DNA of 63,024 bases, the filler included. It is 8 parts of 8 records of this genome, joined end to end, with 100 filler letters (N's around TTAATTAATTAA, not from the genome) between each part and the next. Parts side by side here need not be neighbours in the genome. Positions count along the whole stretch, not along the records: positions 20,309 to 28,308 come from SRR2962707_5234; 7 more parts are not named here. One strand, given 5' to 3'. Every line of letters begins with the position of its first letter. Position 1 is the first letter of the stretch. A program made the translations under genes and the position numbers. The notes below the pieces were generated by a model. That model made no database searches and was not told the DNA's origin. It saw only the letters and a list, made by a program, of their open reading frames with translations. Below are positions 14,212-57,452 of the stretch, in pieces.

Positions 14212-14311
14212 NNNNNNNNNNNNNNNNNNNNNNNNNNNNNNNNNNNNNNNNNNNNTTAATTAATTAANNNNNNNNNNNNNNNNNNNNNNNNNNNNNNNNN
14301 NNNNNNNNNNN
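14212..14311. other. Artificial contig linker
   Basis: N-run, TTAATTAATTAA (stops in six frames), N-run; 100 nt. Confidence 0.99.
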
Positions 14312-20208: not shown

Positions 20209-20308
20209 NNNNNNNNNNNNNNNNNNNNNNNNNNNNNNNNNNNNNNNNNNNNTTAATTAATTAANNNNNNNNNNNNNNNNNNNNNNNNNNNNNNNNNNNN
20301 NNNNNNNN
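20209..20308. other. Artificial contig linker
   Basis: Same N/TTAATTAATTAA/N spacer. Confidence 0.99.
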
Positions 20309-21150
20309 AGCTTCACTTGTTTCTGTTTGCATTCTGTTGCAGTGTTCTCGGCATTGTCTACGACGCCGGCTACTATGTTGACTGGAAGTGTCTGCCCGCA
20401 AACTCCAATGCAAGCAAGTACATTCAAGACAATTTTTCTGGAACAGCCATGGCTGAGTTCATTACAGGTTTTTGGACGTGGCTTGTGCTGTCCACAGTGC
20501 TGCTTGCACACCGTGAGGTACCGGATCTGGGCTTGCACCGAATGTCGCATCCAGGGCGAGAGTTTTCTGCAGAAACTTCTTCTTGCGCATCATGCTGCTG
20601 CCGGAATGTCCTACTTGTCGTCTTCCACGTCACAGTAGTTATTTTTGAAGCGCTTTTGGGCGCTTCTTGTGTATCCTATGCTATGGTCCAGCAAGATGAC
20701 ATGCGCAACCGCAATCAGACCTTGCTGGGGTTAATCGTGTCGTTGGTAGGGACGATTGCCATTCATATTGCTTGCTGCGTTGGATGGTCCCGATTTAAGC
20801 TGCATGCGAACTCCACGCGCACGAACAGTGGCCAGGATCAGCAAGGCAATGGGGTTCATGATATCCATGACGGTAGAAGCACCGACGTAGGTAGTGTGGG
20901 TCAACAATACAGTACTAGGCGTCGTGATCCGGACCAGACTAACTCGAATGGAGGTGCGCGATCAAGGGGTGGCGTGCTGGAAGAGTACAACTATGGGGAT
21001 GGACTCAATGCACCATTGTTGGAAACTGCCGGTGAAGTCGGTCAAAGCACATCTGCGGGACGTGTGCAACGAACTTTAAGCGAGGAGTTTGCCCCTACAG
21101 TTGTTCACGATTTATCTGACGTGTTGAGTCCAGCTTTTACGAAACCGTAA
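20309..21150 (+). CDS. Partial hypothetical membrane protein (eukaryotic)
   Basis: Long ORF from the contig edge with about four hydrophobic helices and a polar tail. It ends at a GTAAG donor-like site, so it may continue. Confidence 0.55.
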
Positions 21151-22413
21151 GTTTTGCTGCCTTCTTTGCTTGTTGTGGCCGTGAGTCCTGCATTAGTCTG
21201 ATGTTGCCAGGGATAAAACGTTCACGTACGCATGTTGGATTTGTTCTCACAACCTTGCGAACCATCACTGCATCACTGGTGCTGGCACTGTAGGGGGCAT
21301 GAAGATGACACTTTTACGGCAACATTTCCGGGTGGGGCACAGCAACGCACTCATCGAGGCTGCGGCATTAAAAAGTGCTGTGGCCTGTGGTGTAGATGCT
21401 GTGGTGATGCGGGCAAGCCTCCGGTGGTAGAGGAAGTCACACGTGTTGTCCGTGCCTCAACATGGATGGGTGTGGATTGGACGCTGGAACGGTATGCCTT
21501 TGTCCCGTGATTTTGCTCGACGATTTCACACACATTTTTGAATGTGGTCTGTGAATGGGTGACTTGTTGACTTGTACTATGGTGTTGTAATAACTCTGCA
21601 CGCAGAGGTGATCGCAACGTGTCCTTTCGTGACGAAACTCCACGAGGTTTTGGAAACGAAAATGGGTTCAGTTTTGGAAGAATGGAGAATGAGGAGGATG
21701 GTGTCCTTGAGCCTTCGACTCGCAGATTTTCATGCGGGGCAACACTGCGCGATTGTTGCGGGGGTTGTCCAGTGCGCTCGATCAACGACGCCGACGATGC
21801 TGAGGTAAGCATTGACACTGCGGCTTGCCAAACAAATTGGGTTTGTCATCGGTGCCTGAATTCATAAAGTTTGCTCCGCCTGGGTGTATTCGACCTTGCC
21901 GTTGGCATCTAGGATCACATTGCCCCTGAAGCAACCAGTGGGTCTGTTCCGTGCACGCTCTCAGTGCTTCTGGCCTTGTTCAAGGTGCTCATTTCATTCC
22001 AAGTCTCGTGGTTAATGGTCTGCGTCCGTTGTATCAAAATGCTGCCTCCTCAATGTTTTGTCTGAAACTCCGCGTTACGTTTTTTTTTGCTGGAAGGTCA
22101 TCAGCTTGGTGTGCCTGGTGTGCTTCGTTGGGACACTTGTTTACGGTGTGACAACATGCTCCCATCCCTTCGGAAACTGGACCGGGTCGTCTGGGTAGAA
22201 TCCCCAAATTGTCGCTCATCTTCTAGGAAAAATCAACCCATGCGTCGCACGACGCTTGTTGTTTGTATCAAAGTGAATCAAATAAACTGTGAGCCCACGT
22301 GAATGCAGAGACAATATCCCTTGCCAAACATTAATTTTTTATGCTGCTTTCTTCTTGACAGCCTTGCTGGTAGTGATGGGCAATGTACACAGACTGGTTC
22401 CTCCTGCATCCAA

Positions 22414-22955
22414 TCACTCCCCTTTCGCAGTTGGTGGCACGGTTGCGATCACTTTAAACTCGACTGCAATGTTTTTCCCATTCGGAGGAAGCGCGGTGAT
22501 TCCACTGGCACACAATCCACAGCAAGGCGCAACAAGGTGCATCGTCAGTTCGCAACCATCACCAGCAACGGAATTCAACAGGTGACCATTCGCAACAGCA
22601 ACGTACATTGTGGTTCGGGTAGCATCAATCCCCGCCATCTCTTCCGCATATACTGCGTTGAAGGCGGGAAAGTCACGTTCCATGTCGGTCAGGAAGCACT
22701 GCACATCAACGACGTTCTCCAGCGAAGAGCCCGCACCCTCAAGGACGGCGCGAATGTTCGAAAACACTTGCCGAGTCTGTGCCGCAGCATCATAATCTCG
22801 CATGGCACCAGTCTCAGGGCACACGACAGGACCACCGGGGACACCATTGGTCTCCGGGTCTCGTGGCCCAATCCCAGCCAAATACAGCGTCTCGCCGACG
22901 CGCCGAGCATGCACGTACGCTCCAACCGGGCGTGGCGCTGCTTTTACATCAAAAG
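22414..22955 (-). CDS. RidA/YjgF family domain, probable 2-aminomuconate deaminase
   Basis: [58 protein letters not shown]. Confidence 0.85.
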
Positions 22956-25900
22956 CGTCACTTGACATGGTGGAGAAGCTGCGGTGCCCAGTCGGAATGG
23001 TTGCTGGGCGACCTGGAAGTGGCGGAGATGTGAGCGGGCCAGTTTTGACACAAACAGTGGAGGTTTCGGAGTAGAAATTGAGTGAGTGAGTGCCGCCCTC
23101 GCGTGCCACTCCACTGGCTTTGTATCCACCGAAGGGCATGTGGAGTTCGCGAAGCAGCCAACAGTTCACCCATATGGTTCCTGCATCTATGCTTGCAGCG
23201 ACATTGTGACCGCGTGACATGGATGTGGTCCACACCTGGGCTGCCAGACCGTACCTGTGAATCATTCAATACGAAGAGACCGCACTTCAGTGATTGAAAA
23301 CCAGGGTGACGACCACCGCTACAATTTGCAAACAGCACCGAAAAAACATGTATGTACGCAAAAGGCCAAAGCCTACTTGGTATCATTTGCAAGCGAAACC
23401 GCTTCATCGTCGGACGTAAATGGGTGAACGGTCACGACAGGCCCGAAAATTTCCTCCTGCACAACTCGGCTGTCGTGAGGCAACCCGCCAAGAATGGTTG
23501 GTCGCCAGAAGTAGCCACCTTCACCAGTCTCTTCTCCATCAGCATCTGTGAAGGATGCCTGAAGCTCTTTCGTACTTGGTGGAACGCCGCCGCACAGGAC
23601 TTCGCCCCCTTCACTACGGGCAAGGTCAACGTACCCGGCAATCTTTGCCCGATGCGCTGCCGACGAGAGTGGGCCCATGTTTGTGTCTGAATGACTTGGG
23701 TTCCCTACCCGCAACGATTCTGCAGCAGCCACTAAGGCGCTAACAAAACGTTCATAGAAGCCCTGGCCATCATCTTCGATCAAGATGCGGCTGCCACATA
23801 GGCAAATTTGACCAGAGTTCAAAAAAGAGCTGCGAATCACGCCGCGAACCGTCGCTTCAAAATCACAGTCAGCAAATACAACGCAAGGATTCTTGCCACC
23901 GAGTTCAAGTGACAGCTTTTTGAACTGTGAGGCTGCAAGAGCAGCCACTTGCGCTCCGGTGGCTGTTCCTCCAGTAAAGGATACGGCAGACACTTGAGGA
24001 TGTGCTACCAGAGGGCCACCACAATCAGCCCCATAACCATGCACAACGTTGAAAACACCATCAGGGAGCCCGGCTTGTTGCAGTGCTCGGGCAAGTAAAA
24101 CAGCCGACCGTGGGGTGACTTCCGAGGGCTTCGCCACGATACTGTTGCCCATCGCCAAAGCTGGGGCCTACGCGTACAAATGCAAAAGAAACCAAATTCA
24201 ACTAGGAGGAACAAAAGAGGCCTATCGCAAGGCAGCTTCGTTGCCGTGCCCATGTCTATGCCTGCTTTCGCAAAGCAAGGTAGCAAGGCAGCACATACCA
24301 GCTTCCACGACAACAAATACAAAGGGAGGTTCCAAGGAGTGACCAAACCCACTACGCCGATCGGTTTGCGGACGGTGTAGGAAGTGCTTTGCAAAAAGTC
24401 TGGGGGGCCATCAATGTGGCGCAATTCGTCAGCGTTGGCGTGCTGCGCTAACCCAGCAAAGAAACGAAGGTTGGCAATCGCTCGAGGAATATCCAAGGCG
24501 CGAGCAAGGCTCAGAGGCTTTCCGGTATCTGCACTTTCGGCATGAACGAATTCCTCAAACATTGGGCCTTCCATTATATCAGCAGCCTGCACATTTCAGA
24601 CGAAACGCAGAATGCGGCATGTTTCACACCTCCCACAACATCGAGCATACCGAATACAACGACAACAGTGAGCAGTTGGCACTTTGCCGTAGACGTACAG
24701 AGGAGAGAACACGGCAGCGCGCTTCCAATGACATCGATGACCACGCGCTTCCTTTGCCAAGGGTTCCAGCCGCCGCTTGAACTGCTGAATCGACATCTGC
24801 ATCAGTTGAAGCTGCAAGAAGGCCATTCACTCGCCCGGTGGCAGGATTTTCGAGCTCTAGTGTGCCACCACCAATGGCTGCGACATCGGCACCATTGATG
24901 AAGTTGTGAACGCGGGGTGGGCTTCCAACAGCGTGGTAAGCTGCGGCAGATACCGTACTGCCAGATGAGTTCGTTGTTTCTGTAGGCACGTTGAGCTTGA
25001 AGAAATCAATGGCATTGCCACCCATCATCCTAGCACGTTGACCATTGGTCAAAAATCCGGCCGTCTGGTTGGCCTGACATACGCGCCCAGTGATATCATT
25101 CTGACTCAGCTCTGAGCACAAAAGCGAAAAAACACCGCACAGTTGCACCCCTGGCAAAGACTGACCACCAAGTCTCCAATTTTCTGCTCACCCAGCGGGA
25201 AAGGGTAGTCCGAGCCCAACATGATACGGTCTGAGCCGAATACATCAGTGAGCAGCTGTTTTCAACAGAGTGGTGCGAGTGAAAAGCAAAAGAAGGCAAT
25301 ATCGTCATGGCACAACAGCGACAATCCGAATCAGAGAATAGTGCGCGCGCGATGGTGTGTCTGCTGGGGGAAGGCGTTGTGCACAGCGTGCAGACGTACC
25401 TTGAGCGCACCACTGTCAAACACTGCGGAGTCAACGCTGAAACGGTCGCAATAGTGAGAAGGGGGGTGCTGTGACTTTCCACGAGCAATGCTGCGCTCTC
25501 GCCATGCGTTGTCCAGACGTCCAAGCAAATACGGAAAGGCGCCACCACCGTGCGCGAAACACAGCCGCAGGCTCTCGGGTAATCGATCAAAGGCGCCACC
25601 AAGAATCATTGACTATGTGTACATTCAATGCAGTTACGACAAGAACATGCAAAAGTGTGTGCAAAAATGCGCAACAAAAAGTTTCGGACGCGCAGAGCTC
25701 ATCAAGTGACTGTTCAAGCAGTTCTTTCATCACGAAGGCAGACAGTACAGTTGCGGGAGGCTAGAGGCGAGAAAGAAGAAAAACAGGGCGGCAAACATCG
25801 TGAAACAATTCGGCCCTGCTCAGCAACTGGGCCAAACTTACCACGATTGACAAGTGCGTCTCCAAAGGCATGCCGACAGTCCATCCCATCATGTACTTCT

Positions 25901-28308
25901 CCAATCGACCACTCATCATGTCCATGTCCCATGGGTGCACAAGCACAGGGATATCTTTTTCAGCACAGTGCTGCGCGTACACGTCAAATGCACGACAGCA
26001 ATAGGCAAATGAAAAAACAAATTTGTCAGATACAACAGAGCAACACGTGAGTCTTTGCTGTTGTCATGACAACTGTTATGACTCGTACTTGGAGGAATGT
26101 GATGAGTCCTTCATCGTCTAAGTCCTTGTTTCCGACGTGGTTTCCAATTTGAACTCCAACCTGAACCGTGCATAAATCGGGCCACATTGGAAAGTGAGCT
26201 AAACCACAAATACCAAGTGCATGCCGGCACTGCAATCCAAGAACTCACTGCTCGAGGACCGTCACCGCAGCAAACACGTTCAACTTCTCGGCAAGAAAGG
26301 TCAATATCTTGCAGTGGAACTTGACAAAGACCATGAAGCCTTCCGTGGGTCGTTGTCTTGTCGTCACAGAGACCGACGATGTAGTCGTTCATGTGTTGTG
26401 CTACGGCCAGTGCCTCTGATGCTGGACGATCCCACTGAAATAGAATTGGCGTCGCGCACACGATTTGATGATGAATTCCTGCATGGTCGAGATCGGACAA
26501 GCGCGCATCTATATTTTGATGGGCCACGTATCGACAGGCAAATAGAGACAGGCAAGTAAGGGGCGCGCGCACACACACACACAGTCAATTGACAGCGAGC
26601 AACGATCAACAGGACACATGTATTAGAGATGCCTGGGCAACAACGAGATGCTGCACGTGCACACCGGAACGTACCAACGTCCCAACATGCTTTTGTAACT
26701 GGTCGGAAGTCCTTCTGCCCCTTCATTAGCATCGCAGAGGCATGGTGATCGTAACCAAACTTCTGTGACACGTCAGGTAAATCGGTGTGTCGCATCCATG
26801 GCCTGACGCAGATCGATGGGCAGCAAGATATTTGATCACTTCAGGGACACAGAAGACCTTCATGTCGACATTGTCAAAGGAGCCATGGGAGGAACATTTG
26901 GGAAACGCACCACTCTGAACCACCAAACTTCTCGGCAAAATCAGGCCACTCCCGCGGAAGAAAGTGGGAGTGCATGTCCACTACAGTTGGTGTCTTGCCG
27001 TTGGTGCTCGAGGTTGCACTTGTGCTGAAAGTACGGCGTGCTGGACCATTGATCTCGAGGCCGCCTCCAGCACCGCCTGCGATCGAGATCGCACGGTCAC
27101 GGCGGGACAACTTTCTCGCAACTCTGTTGCTGATACTCACTGCGACGCCTCCTGACTCCACGCGCAGAGACGCCCCGAGAGGCTCTTGCACCAATGTCAT
27201 ATCACCATCACGCAGTGGCAACAAAGGAAGACCTGGAGCACTCTCGGCCTGCACGAGTTCGCTGGTGCCACTGAGCTGGTAGATGAAAGACTCGTCAGCA
27301 CCCACTCCTCCTACACCGTGAGTTAGCACAGGCTCTGCAACGCCCCGATCCATGCGAGCTGGCATTTCACATGGGCCCTTGTGAACATGCATCACAAATT
27401 CGGAGTCGAACACAACGTGGGATCCAGCTGGCTGGTCTGCAATCCACGATTCCAGGTGAAAAGGTTCTGGCGGGATGGCAACGGGGTCTTCGGGGGTAGG
27501 CCTTTGGGTGAGGGACAAAAGTGCGATGGTGAGACAACCTTGAATAACCGGCAGAAAAATCACAACTTCTCATCAGGAATATGATGGGAAGTGCATCGTT
27601 GCAGAGTTTCCAAACTCACCGGACCGCCATCCCATGCTCCCATCCAGGCACTGTCGCTGCGGCAGTAGCAGCATCCGATTGCAAATACGCTTCGTGCTGT
27701 TCGATCACTGGCTTGAGTTGCGTCCCAAGGTTGTGGCAGTGGAACCACTGGCGATACTGTGGGTCCAGCACGTCGGGTCGCTCCTGGGTTGCTGCGCCAA
27801 CGTCGGCGTACCACTGCACGGCGTCCAACTCTGACAGCGAGCGTTCTCGCTCAAAAACAAACCCAACCGAGCCCGCCTCGCGAGTGGGGTTGTGCGGCAC
27901 TGACGACTGCAGCAGCCAAACGTAACCTGGAGGAAGGTGCACAGGACGCTGCACATTGCCATTCTGCACGATGTTGACCACAGCATTGCCCTTCAACTGC
28001 CAGAAGAGTTCTTCACCTCTCTGCAGGTGGTAGTCGGTCCTCTGGTTGGGCCCGCCCACGATCATCACCTTGAGTGCGTCCTCATACATGAGCCTGTTTG
28101 CAACTGGCGGCTTGAGCTTGTCTTTGTTCGACTCAAACCACGCGGAGAATGACATCACCTGCCCCACTGCCGGGCTCTGGCAACTGCTGGAGCCTTCCTG
28201 CACGGCACCAGCAGCACTAGCAGCAGCAGCGTGTTGGCAACGGGCTCCACCTTGTTGAACAGCTGAGAAGCTGCGTCGGTTGCTGTTGTTGTTGCTGTTG
28301 TTGTTGTT
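22414..28308 (-). CDS. Kynurenine-pathway polyprotein HAAO-ACMSD-ALDH8A1-RidA, multi-exon, 5' truncated
   Basis: Four recognisable domains. Each junction lies within one stop-free ORF (26874-27563, 24624-25157, 22414-23265). The frame is open to the contig end at 28308. Confidence 0.88.
23050..24915 (-). CDS. ALDH8A1: 2-aminomuconate semialdehyde dehydrogenase domain (ALDH8A1-like)
   Basis: [71 protein letters not shown]. Confidence 0.9.
24990..26985 (-). CDS. ACMSD: 2-amino-3-carboxymuconate-6-semialdehyde decarboxylase domain
   Basis: [60 protein letters not shown]. Confidence 0.92.
27120..28155 (-). CDS. HAAO: 3-hydroxyanthranilate 3,4-dioxygenase domain of the polyprotein
   Basis: [51 protein letters not shown] second cupin-like half follows intron 27502-27619. 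Confidence 0.92.
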
Positions 28309-28408
28309 NNNNNNNNNNNNNNNNNNNNNNNNNNNNNNNNNNNNNNNNNNNNTTAATTAATTAANNNNNNNNNNNNNNNNNNNNNNNNNNNNNNNNNNNN
28401 NNNNNNNN
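28309..28408. other. Artificial contig linker
   Basis: Same spacer. Confidence 0.99.
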
Positions 28409-28479
28409 GTGCGTGTGTGTGTGTGCGTGTGCGTGTGTTTCCTTTGTGTGTGATTCTGCTTCAGAAACAGTGAGTTGAG

Positions 28480-33651: not shown

Positions 33652-33751
33652 NNNNNNNNNNNNNNNNNNNNNNNNNNNNNNNNNNNNNNNNNNNNTTAAT
33701 TAATTAANNNNNNNNNNNNNNNNNNNNNNNNNNNNNNNNNNNNNNNNNNNN
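33652..33751. other. Artificial contig linker
   Basis: Same spacer. Confidence 0.99.
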
Positions 33752-40981: not shown

Positions 40982-41081
40982 NNNNNNNNNNNNNNNNNNN
41001 NNNNNNNNNNNNNNNNNNNNNNNNNTTAATTAATTAANNNNNNNNNNNNNNNNNNNNNNNNNNNNNNNNNNNNNNNNNNNN
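40982..41081. other. Artificial contig linker
   Basis: Same spacer. Confidence 0.99.
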
Positions 41082-48979: not shown

Positions 48980-49079
48980 NNNNNNNNNNNNNNNNNNNNN
49001 NNNNNNNNNNNNNNNNNNNNNNNTTAATTAATTAANNNNNNNNNNNNNNNNNNNNNNNNNNNNNNNNNNNNNNNNNNNN
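48980..49079. other. Artificial contig linker
   Basis: Same spacer. Confidence 0.99.
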
Positions 49080-57352: not shown

Positions 57353-57452
57353 NNNNNNNNNNNNNNNNNNNNNNNNNNNNNNNNNNNNNNNNNNNNTTAA
57401 TTAATTAANNNNNNNNNNNNNNNNNNNNNNNNNNNNNNNNNNNNNNNNNNNN
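57353..57452. other. Artificial contig linker
   Basis: Same spacer. Confidence 0.99.

Follow-up and report, generated by a model that had tools for sequence, protein, structure and literature searches.

A spliced four-enzyme kynurenine-pathway gene of a marine protist, with conserved motifs for putative mitochondrial processing between its domains

The window analyzed here is a stretch of 63,024 bases in which 8 contigs are joined by N44-TTAATTAATTAA-N44 spacers. One of these contigs, 8000 bases long (20309-28308), carries a polyprotein gene on its minus strand. Judged by its domains, this marine-protist gene combines, in a single chain, enzymes that follow one another in the lower kynurenine pathway (tryptophan breakdown): HAAO, ACMSD, a 2-aminomuconate-semialdehyde dehydrogenase (AMSDH) of the ALDH type and a RidA-type deaminase. 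The analysis directly establishes the fusion, its splicing, the identities of the four enzymes (that of the deaminase as a probable one) and the presence of short Arg-x-Phe motifs, of which the two internal ones are conserved and lie in linkers. We infer, with a probability of roughly 55%, that the chain would be a composite mitochondrial precursor of the Arg5,6 kind, processed by the protease MPP into HAAO, an ACMSD-ALDH unit and a free deaminase; the N-terminal targeting signal, the import, the protease, the cut sites and the products are all predictions.

The four enzymes are encoded on one spliced mRNA. The gene model, built from coordinates, spans 22414-28308 in 13 exons, separated by introns of 88-229 nucleotides (nt) that are all of the GT-AG type, and ends with a stop codon at 22416-22414. 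Its 1454 codons are numbered from the contig end, not from a start codon. Exons 1-5 lie at 28308-27620, 27501-26911, 26802-26675, 26508-26249 and 26160-26089, exons 6-9 at 25970-25842, 25612-25400, 25255-25166 and 25073-24699, and exons 10-13 at 24586-24299, 24167-23377, 23254-22607 and 22504-22414, all on the minus strand, like every feature of this gene given below. In the contigs of run X2, which is guessed to be RNA and whose contigs are spliced at this gene, the joined form with canonical ends is found for at least 11 of the 12 modelled introns; the DNA run X1 contains none of these intron-less joints. Each of the three domain junctions is contained in one single piece of an X2 contig. 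Two X2 contigs meet within the ACMSD part, and the whole frame is spanned by no single contig. The X2 joints bear out the single chain that had been proposed in an earlier, sequence-only reading of this DNA. At 25461, in a run of C in exon 7 (ACMSD), X1 is one base short relative to the window; the reading frame of the window is supported there, because the spliced X2 contigs agree with it.

The first domain, HAAO of the two-cupin eukaryotic type, covers 27135-28155 (codons 52-352) and is interrupted by one intron. The HAAO exon matches PF06052 with E=3.3e-43 and 147 bits (cut-off 25), and its best match among solved structures is human 2qnk (6.4e-40), an alignment in which residue 4 of the query pairs with residue 8 of the chain. 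As this alignment begins near the natural N-terminus, codon 52 (ATG at 28155) is the canonical HAAO start. On the single HAAO exon, the NCBIfam HAAO equivalogs score below their own cut-offs. ACMSD follows at 24990-26987 and was recognized by comparing exon 7 with solved structures, where 13 of 13 matches are ACMSD (best 4ifk, 8e-27). The Pfam family Amidohydro_2 reaches 23.1 bits on the 71 residues of exon 7 alone, under its cut-off of 26.4; the ACMSD metal-ligand motifs were read by eye.

The third domain (23044-24917, codons 777-1279) is an ALDH of the 2-aminomuconate-6-semialdehyde dehydrogenase type. It matches PF00171 with 1.6e-89 and 301 bits, and its 7 top matches in the PDB are all 2-aminomuconate 6-semialdehyde dehydrogenases (best 4u3w, 4.1e-70). 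Its best NCBIfam family is TIGR03216, the single exons falling under the whole-protein cut-off of that family. By similarity the domain is closest to the 2-aminomuconate-semialdehyde dehydrogenases, and this specificity is predicted. The RidA/YjgF domain at the C-terminus (22417-22947, codons 1312-1454, one 102-nt intron) matches PF01042 with 1.6e-21 and 77 bits. Its best solved match is 6izh, a "2-aminomuconate deaminase" (1.7e-15), with generic RidA proteins close behind (5e-15). The fusion to AMSDH is a stronger argument than this match for the identity of the domain, which is probably a 2-aminomuconate deaminase; the same label is given by JGI to two of the related proteins, P0016 and P0025. 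The Pfam and solved-structure matches agree with the four domains as they had been named beforehand.

The domains are separated by three linkers. Linker 1 (26988-27134, codons 353-401) is rich in Arg, and its exon has no Pfam or NCBIfam match. Linker 2 (24918-24989, codons 753-776), between ACMSD and ALDH, contains no Arg-x-Phe motif, as had been noted before. Linker 3 (22948-23043, codons 1280-1311) is Pro-rich and free of acidic residues upstream of its motif. Three motifs had been claimed from the letters alone, and all are confirmed in the gene model: RRSFSA (motif 1, 28278-28261, codons 11-16) in the leader that precedes HAAO, RRTFSTS (motif 2, 27038-27018, codons 385-391) in linker 1 and HRSFSTM (motif 3, 22986-22966, codons 1299-1305) in linker 3. 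The 1454 codons contain R-x-F-[ST] 3 times, solely in the leader and the linkers and never within a domain. In 5000 shuffles of the protein, the mean number was 0.38, and three or more were found in 0.48% (P ~0.005). A looser form of the motif turns up just once more, as RVLSS at codon 845 within the ALDH domain.

Junctions 1 and 3 read R-T-F-S-T and R-S-F-S-T, with Arg at position -2, an aromatic residue at +1, and then the Ser and Thr of an Icp55-type site. The motif described for plant ICP55 is RX(F/Y/I/L)|(S/A)(S/T) (PMC8847149). The resemblance to MPP sites suggested earlier holds for the internal motifs, which match the published MPP/Icp55 consensus. A further claim concerned ARSFGT, which indeed ends a presequence-like N-terminus on a separate contig (62773-62756, minus strand). 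The first 36 residues encoded by that gene, a P-loop NTPase of the NUBPL/Mrp/HCF101 type, include 7 basic and 0 acidic ones, and this may be a case, from the same organism, in which the motif stands at a genuine N-terminal signal.

Conservation in orthologues had been set beforehand as a test. When metagenomes were scanned with the HAAO exon, 8 loci were found. One of them, L001, is a 9232-base contig from a seawater metagenome; it holds an entire ortholog with all four domains, whose segments are 59-96% identical and whose intron positions differ in part. This ortholog keeps RRSFST before ACMSD and KRSFST before RidA, though the adjoining linker residues differ, and its ACMSD-ALDH linker has no motif, as in the window. 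A closer relative, L003/P0165, reads R-A-M-S-T at junction 1. R-x-[F/F/M]-S-T is thereby found at junction 1 in 3 of the 3 sequences that cover it (window, L001 and L003/P0165). Word-index searches with exon 2 (the C-terminal half of HAAO, linker 1 and the start of ACMSD) gave none of 4712 candidates at E <= 0.001 among longer proteins and three fragments among proteins of similar length; junction 1 rests on three close relatives, since P0165 alone of these fragments spans the linker. The ESM Atlas gave no usable match.

Linker 3 could be followed much further. An exhaustive HMMER search with exon 12 (C-terminus of ALDH, linker 3 and RidA) found 9653 proteins at E <= 0.001, and 20 of the best 150 representatives of these contain both parts; with the window they form a set of 21 ALDH-RidA fusions. 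R-x-[FYLM]-[SA]-[ST] is present in the linker of 10 of the 21, against 0.5 expected from shuffling each linker, an expectation that overstates independence, as the 21 fusions are related to one another. The stricter R-x-F-[ST] occurs in 7 of the 21 (0.48 expected). When 16 fusions are aligned with MAFFT, the motif occupies one column block with the majority consensus R-x-F-S-T. This is the sole majority-consensus island in an otherwise variable linker of 29-104 residues, and it comes after the Pro-rich tail of ALDH. Over the ten motif-bearing fusions, the 21 residues ending at the motif Arg include 33 basic residues and 1 acidic residue, and acidic ones return a few residues downstream. A basic, almost acid-free segment followed by the return of acidic residues is, in terms of sequence, the pattern of a boundary between presequence and mature protein. 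The predicted cut would lie 5-27 residues before the RidA core in all ten.

In other lineages, the motif is also found in the ACMSD-ALDH linker: P0015 has R-G-F-A-S, and P0029/P0161 (Chrysochromulina parva / C. tobinii) have R-S-Y-A-T after 30 acid-free residues, 7 of them basic. Each of the three junction types thus carries the motif in some lineage. The earlier proposal of a joint ACMSD-ALDH unit, which would channel the semialdehyde, is therefore retained in part. With no motif in this linker in the window or in L001, a fused ACMSD-ALDH product is the natural prediction for the lineage of the window; with the motif present in P0015 and P0029/P0161, such a channelling unit would be lineage-specific.

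The leader ahead of HAAO (28156-28308) consists of 51 in-frame codons that are open to the contig end, and it starts in an (AAC)n repeat. Its codons 11-51 have a coding score of 0.162 in frame and of 0.009 and -0.284 in the other frames (references: 0.207 +/- 0.087 for windows of coding sequence, -0.329 +/- 0.142 for introns). An X2 RNA contig aligns as far as 28272, and the 36 letters left over match in number the stretch between there and the contig end. No loose end of the contigs of the sequencing runs reaches beyond 28308. Translation of the leader is likely, because of its in-frame coding score and because the RNA contig reaches 28272; the leader may belong to an N-terminal extension or a presequence. 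In L001, an in-frame ATG is present 53 codons upstream of the conserved Met, and the leader so defined contains 11 basic residues and 1 acidic residue. P0001, whose HAAO is 66% identical, has a basic N-terminal extension of 32 residues.

Further observations concern HAAO N-termini and architecture. The stand-alone HAAOs P0003, P0007 and P0009 carry basic N-terminal extensions of 30-50 residues, and the extension of P0003 holds R-Q-L-S-T just before the cupin. Judged from sequence, such extensions hint at a possible organellar HAAO in further protists. In L003, the 5' end (1-60) looks like a remnant, which we take to be of a sequencing adapter, fused to the HAAO exon, so that the N-terminal region of this locus is unusable. 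P0002 (358 residues) has two tandem catalytic HAAO cupins instead of one catalytic and one degenerate C-terminal cupin.

According to the proposed mechanism, the polyprotein chain would be imported into the mitochondrial matrix, where MPP would cut two residues past the conserved Arg, at T387|F388 and S1301|F1302, and also, provided that the leader is translated, at S13|F14. Icp55 would then remove the exposed Phe (F388 and F1302) and leave Ser at the N-termini. The predicted products are HAAO of 36.7-40.1 kDa, a fused ACMSD-ALDH of 97.5 kDa and a free deaminase of 16.0 kDa. Together they would carry 3-hydroxyanthranilate via ACMS, 2-aminomuconate semialdehyde and 2-aminomuconate to the deaminated keto acid. 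In a wider form of the proposal, several protist lineages (that of the window organism, its relatives from seawater, and haptophytes) would take up the entire lower kynurenine branch into mitochondria as a single polypeptide, trimmed by MPP and Icp55 at R-x-F|S-T into stoichiometric enzymes, with varying cut junctions, ACMSD-ALDH staying fused here and being split in haptophytes. This generalization is about evenly balanced between true and false, slightly behind the reading of the single gene.

Several points weigh against processing. Internal cleavage requires a strong N-terminal presequence according to Friedl et al. (PMC8734313), so the whole cleavage model hangs on the N-terminal signal. 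Between the contig end and codon 52, the leader offers no ATG in frame, and 30 nt upstream of motif 1 the contig breaks off. The coding score of the L001 leader is alike in all frames (0.207 / 0.198 / 0.255), and gene callers prefer long open reading frames. R-x-F-S is absent from the leaders read for L001 and P0001; conservation was found for the two internal motifs (in L001 and, before RidA, in 10 of the 21 fusions), the N-terminal motif failing the same test in L001 and P0001. By a presequence-likeness score, linker 1 holds the two top windows and linker 3 of the window ranks sixth, with 2 basic residues among the 21 that end at its motif Arg; the score is crude and home-made, and is neither TargetP nor MitoFates. 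An AlphaFold2 model of exon 12 has a mean pLDDT of 55 and gives linker 3 values of ~28-37 with no secondary structure, which is uninformative on the linker, as the ALDH fragment, modelled out of context, scores low too. The kinship of the fusions has already been mentioned; in addition, P0011 equals the L001 reading frame at the compared positions and shares 87% identity with the window in exon 12. The full motif is missing from 11 of the 21 ALDH-RidA fusions: P0013, P0015 (R-S-F-C), P0019, P0020 (R-G-L-S-I), P0024, P0025, P0026, P0029 (whose gene model lacks the linker), P0038, P0047 and P0063. P0026 and P0038 are motif-less fusions with short linkers, and P0013 is motif-less as well; uncleaved fusions evidently work, and cleavage is not obligatory.

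These fusions lead to the strongest alternative, in which the chain is a multifunctional enzyme that is never cut, in whatever compartment it resides. The linkers would then be relic presequences of once-separate genes that now serve as flexible tethers, and the motif would be decaying or be kept for a reason other than cleavage. The short-linker fusions P0026 and P0038, the three tandem RidA copies of P0013, the 11 fusions without a full motif, the bare linker 2 of the window and the putative nature of the N-terminal signal all speak for it. A relic should decay, yet the motif is the sole alignable island in 10 of the 21 fusions, which cluster below 50% identity. Its position is kept 5-27 residues before the RidA core, acidic residues are excluded upstream, and all three junction types bear it in one lineage or another. 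We regard an uncleaved enzyme as unlikely, though as the most probable of the alternatives.

RidA is a trimer. The sequence-only reading had supposed that RidA is freed in order to trimerise, an explanation that is weakened by the motif-less, short-linker P0026 and P0038 and by the three RidA copies of P0013. Three tandem RidA copies per chain are found in P0012 (Diplonema japonicum), P0013 and P0032; in P0013, ALDH is followed by a short motif-less linker and then by the three copies. Such a triplication may be, from its arrangement, another route to a RidA trimer that needs no cleavage.

A second alternative, much less probable than the first, is that the motif is a regulatory phosphorylation site in hinges, recognized by a basophilic kinase (R-x-x-S) and possibly bound by 14-3-3. 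A phosphorylation site of this kind lies in a hinge of plant nitrate reductase, and the 14-3-3 mode-1 motif has Pro at +2. The fit of R-x-x-S to basophilic kinase sites is, at the level of sequence, a further point against cleavage: Arg stands at -3 from a Ser in 3 of the 3 window motifs, and all of these lie in disordered, Ser/Thr-rich hinges. However, what is conserved is the Arg, a bulky hydrophobic residue two positions on and a small residue, the Ser itself being replaceable. It is Ala at junction 2 of P0015 and P0029/P0161, Cys at junction 3 of P0015 and Gly in the first copy of P0016, and the Ala fits the protease consensus and not a kinase site. Pro is not found at +2, and phosphorylation leaves the upstream asymmetry of 33 basic versus 1 acidic residues unexplained.

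Plastid polyproteins exist in euglenids and dinoflagellates, and plastid import in haptophytes first needs a signal peptide for the endoplasmic reticulum. Processing in another compartment or by another protease, for example by a plastid stromal peptidase given a primary plastid with presequence-like transit peptides, could draw on those polyproteins and on the NUBPL/HCF101-type gene, whose similar N-terminus could be that of plastid HCF101, and it is marginally the least probable alternative, as R-x-(F/Y/L)-(S/A)-(S/T) is a documented MPP and Icp55 signature (PMC8847149), the same motif occurs in the haptophyte fusions P0029/P0161 (Chrysochromulina; P0023 is near-identical over long stretches), and the L001 leader as read lacks the hydrophobic core of a signal peptide.

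Processing by MPP, if confirmed, would be of interest in several ways. Internal tailoring by MPP is known for few fusions, mostly of two parts, and no natural example would be richer than a conserved precursor of a whole pathway branch with multiple cuts. Such a precursor could serve as a model for the supply of enzymes to mitochondria at set ratios, an aim that is reportedly already pursued with synthetic nitrogenase polyproteins. Finally, 3-hydroxyanthranilate would be catabolized inside mitochondria, which bears on the split between NAD synthesis and catabolism; in animals (mammals) and yeast, this segment of the pathway is cytosolic. The fusion of a deaminase-type domain to the three preceding enzymes is in itself independent "Rosetta-stone" evidence and carries the deaminase solution to protists, in which a RidA-type 2-aminomuconate deaminase would take over the step that follows 2-aminomuconate. 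The proposal makes sharp predictions that are cheap to test: three polypeptides of the given sizes, with neo-N-termini at S389 and S1303.

The surroundings of the gene can be described briefly. The spacers of the window lie at 14212-14311, 20209-20308, 28309-28408, 33652-33751, 40982-41081, 48980-49079 and 57353-57452. GC content varies from ~0.38 to 0.63 across the 8 contigs, which may therefore come from more than one source organism. A convergent gene with at least four GT-AG introns neighbors the polyprotein gene on the plus strand (20341-22504); it apparently encodes a membrane protein and is truncated at the contig start. A single X2 RNA contig runs through from this neighbor to the polyprotein gene, which it enters at the 3' end; the two transcripts thus abut or overlap at their ends. 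The X2 contig covering the neighbor reaches 761 letters past the contig start. Two contigs have a microsatellite at one end, (AAC)n/(GTT)n at 28273-28308 and (GT)n/(CA)n at 28409-28440, the start of the next contig; these repeats probably explain why the genome assemblies and the RNA contig break there; a continuation of the (AAC)n repeat is absent from every contig end in the window. In the contig at 41082-48979, the same string of ~17 bases, tRNA-like by eye, is present at both ends, a repeat that may have caused this contig to break off.

Parts of this enzyme set have been reported before. A RidA-family (IPR006175) 2-aminomuconate deaminase is described after the semialdehyde dehydrogenase in Burkholderia cenocepacia and in ascomycete kynurenine clusters, in a preprint that calls the eukaryotic fate of 2-aminomuconate hitherto unresolved and finds a deaminase of the RidA type in fungi and, for animals, ASPDH (10.64898/2026.06.05.730449). 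Those clusters contain the same enzymes as separate, clustered genes, whereas the window has one fused reading frame; the words "fused" and "fusion" do not occur in the text of the preprint. KYU-HAAO of Prasinoderma coloniale is also an algal HAAO fusion, but with the upstream kynureninase and not with the three downstream enzymes (PMC7455551); the available passages of that paper make no mention of its processing or targeting. In a 2014 survey of eukaryotic NAD synthesis, "gene fusion" is confined to the reference list. A close precedent is Chrysochromulina tobinii KOO23627.1 (P0161, 1018 aa), which, together with P0029 of C. parva, has ACMSD, ALDH and RidA in one protein, with an ACMSD-ALDH linker that is rich in Arg. 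Unlike the window, the P0161/P0029 model starts at the ACMSD core and has no HAAO, and its ALDH-RidA linker is missing. KOO23627.1 is annotated merely as "amidohydrolase 2", and the three-domain fusion is already public there. In the Creative Commons part of PMC and in bioRxiv, as covered by titles, the openings of abstracts and some text passages, no description of a HAAO/ACMSD/ALDH/RidA fusion was found.

The proposed processing has its nearest counterpart in yeast Arg5,6, in which an internal MPP site, R-S-Y, lies in a stretch resembling a targeting signal and trimming by Icp55 is predicted; the presequence-like junction stretch is conserved among the fusion homologues (PMC8734313). As in Arg5,6 and Neurospora arg-6, consecutive enzymes of a pathway stand in one chain with an R-x-aromatic site at the junction that is conserved in fusion homologues. 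Unlike Arg5,6, the polyprotein of the window joins four enzymes, with up to three or four predicted products instead of two, is catabolic and belongs to protists and not to fungi; cleavage by MPP is a fact for Arg5,6 and a prediction for the window polyprotein, as is the N-terminal signal. Other composite precursors with internal MPP sites are Atp25, Etp1 of S. pombe, Rsm22-Cox11, SPAC22A12.08c and rice RPS14 (PMC8847149; PMC5063612). They share with the window a fusion in which a presequence-like stretch and an MPP motif occupy the junction. This Atp25-type set mostly joins unrelated functions, whereas the window polyprotein joins successive steps of one pathway. By analogy, the window polyprotein would be processed in the same way as Arg5,6, Atp25 and the further composite precursors, and its four-enzyme content would be new.

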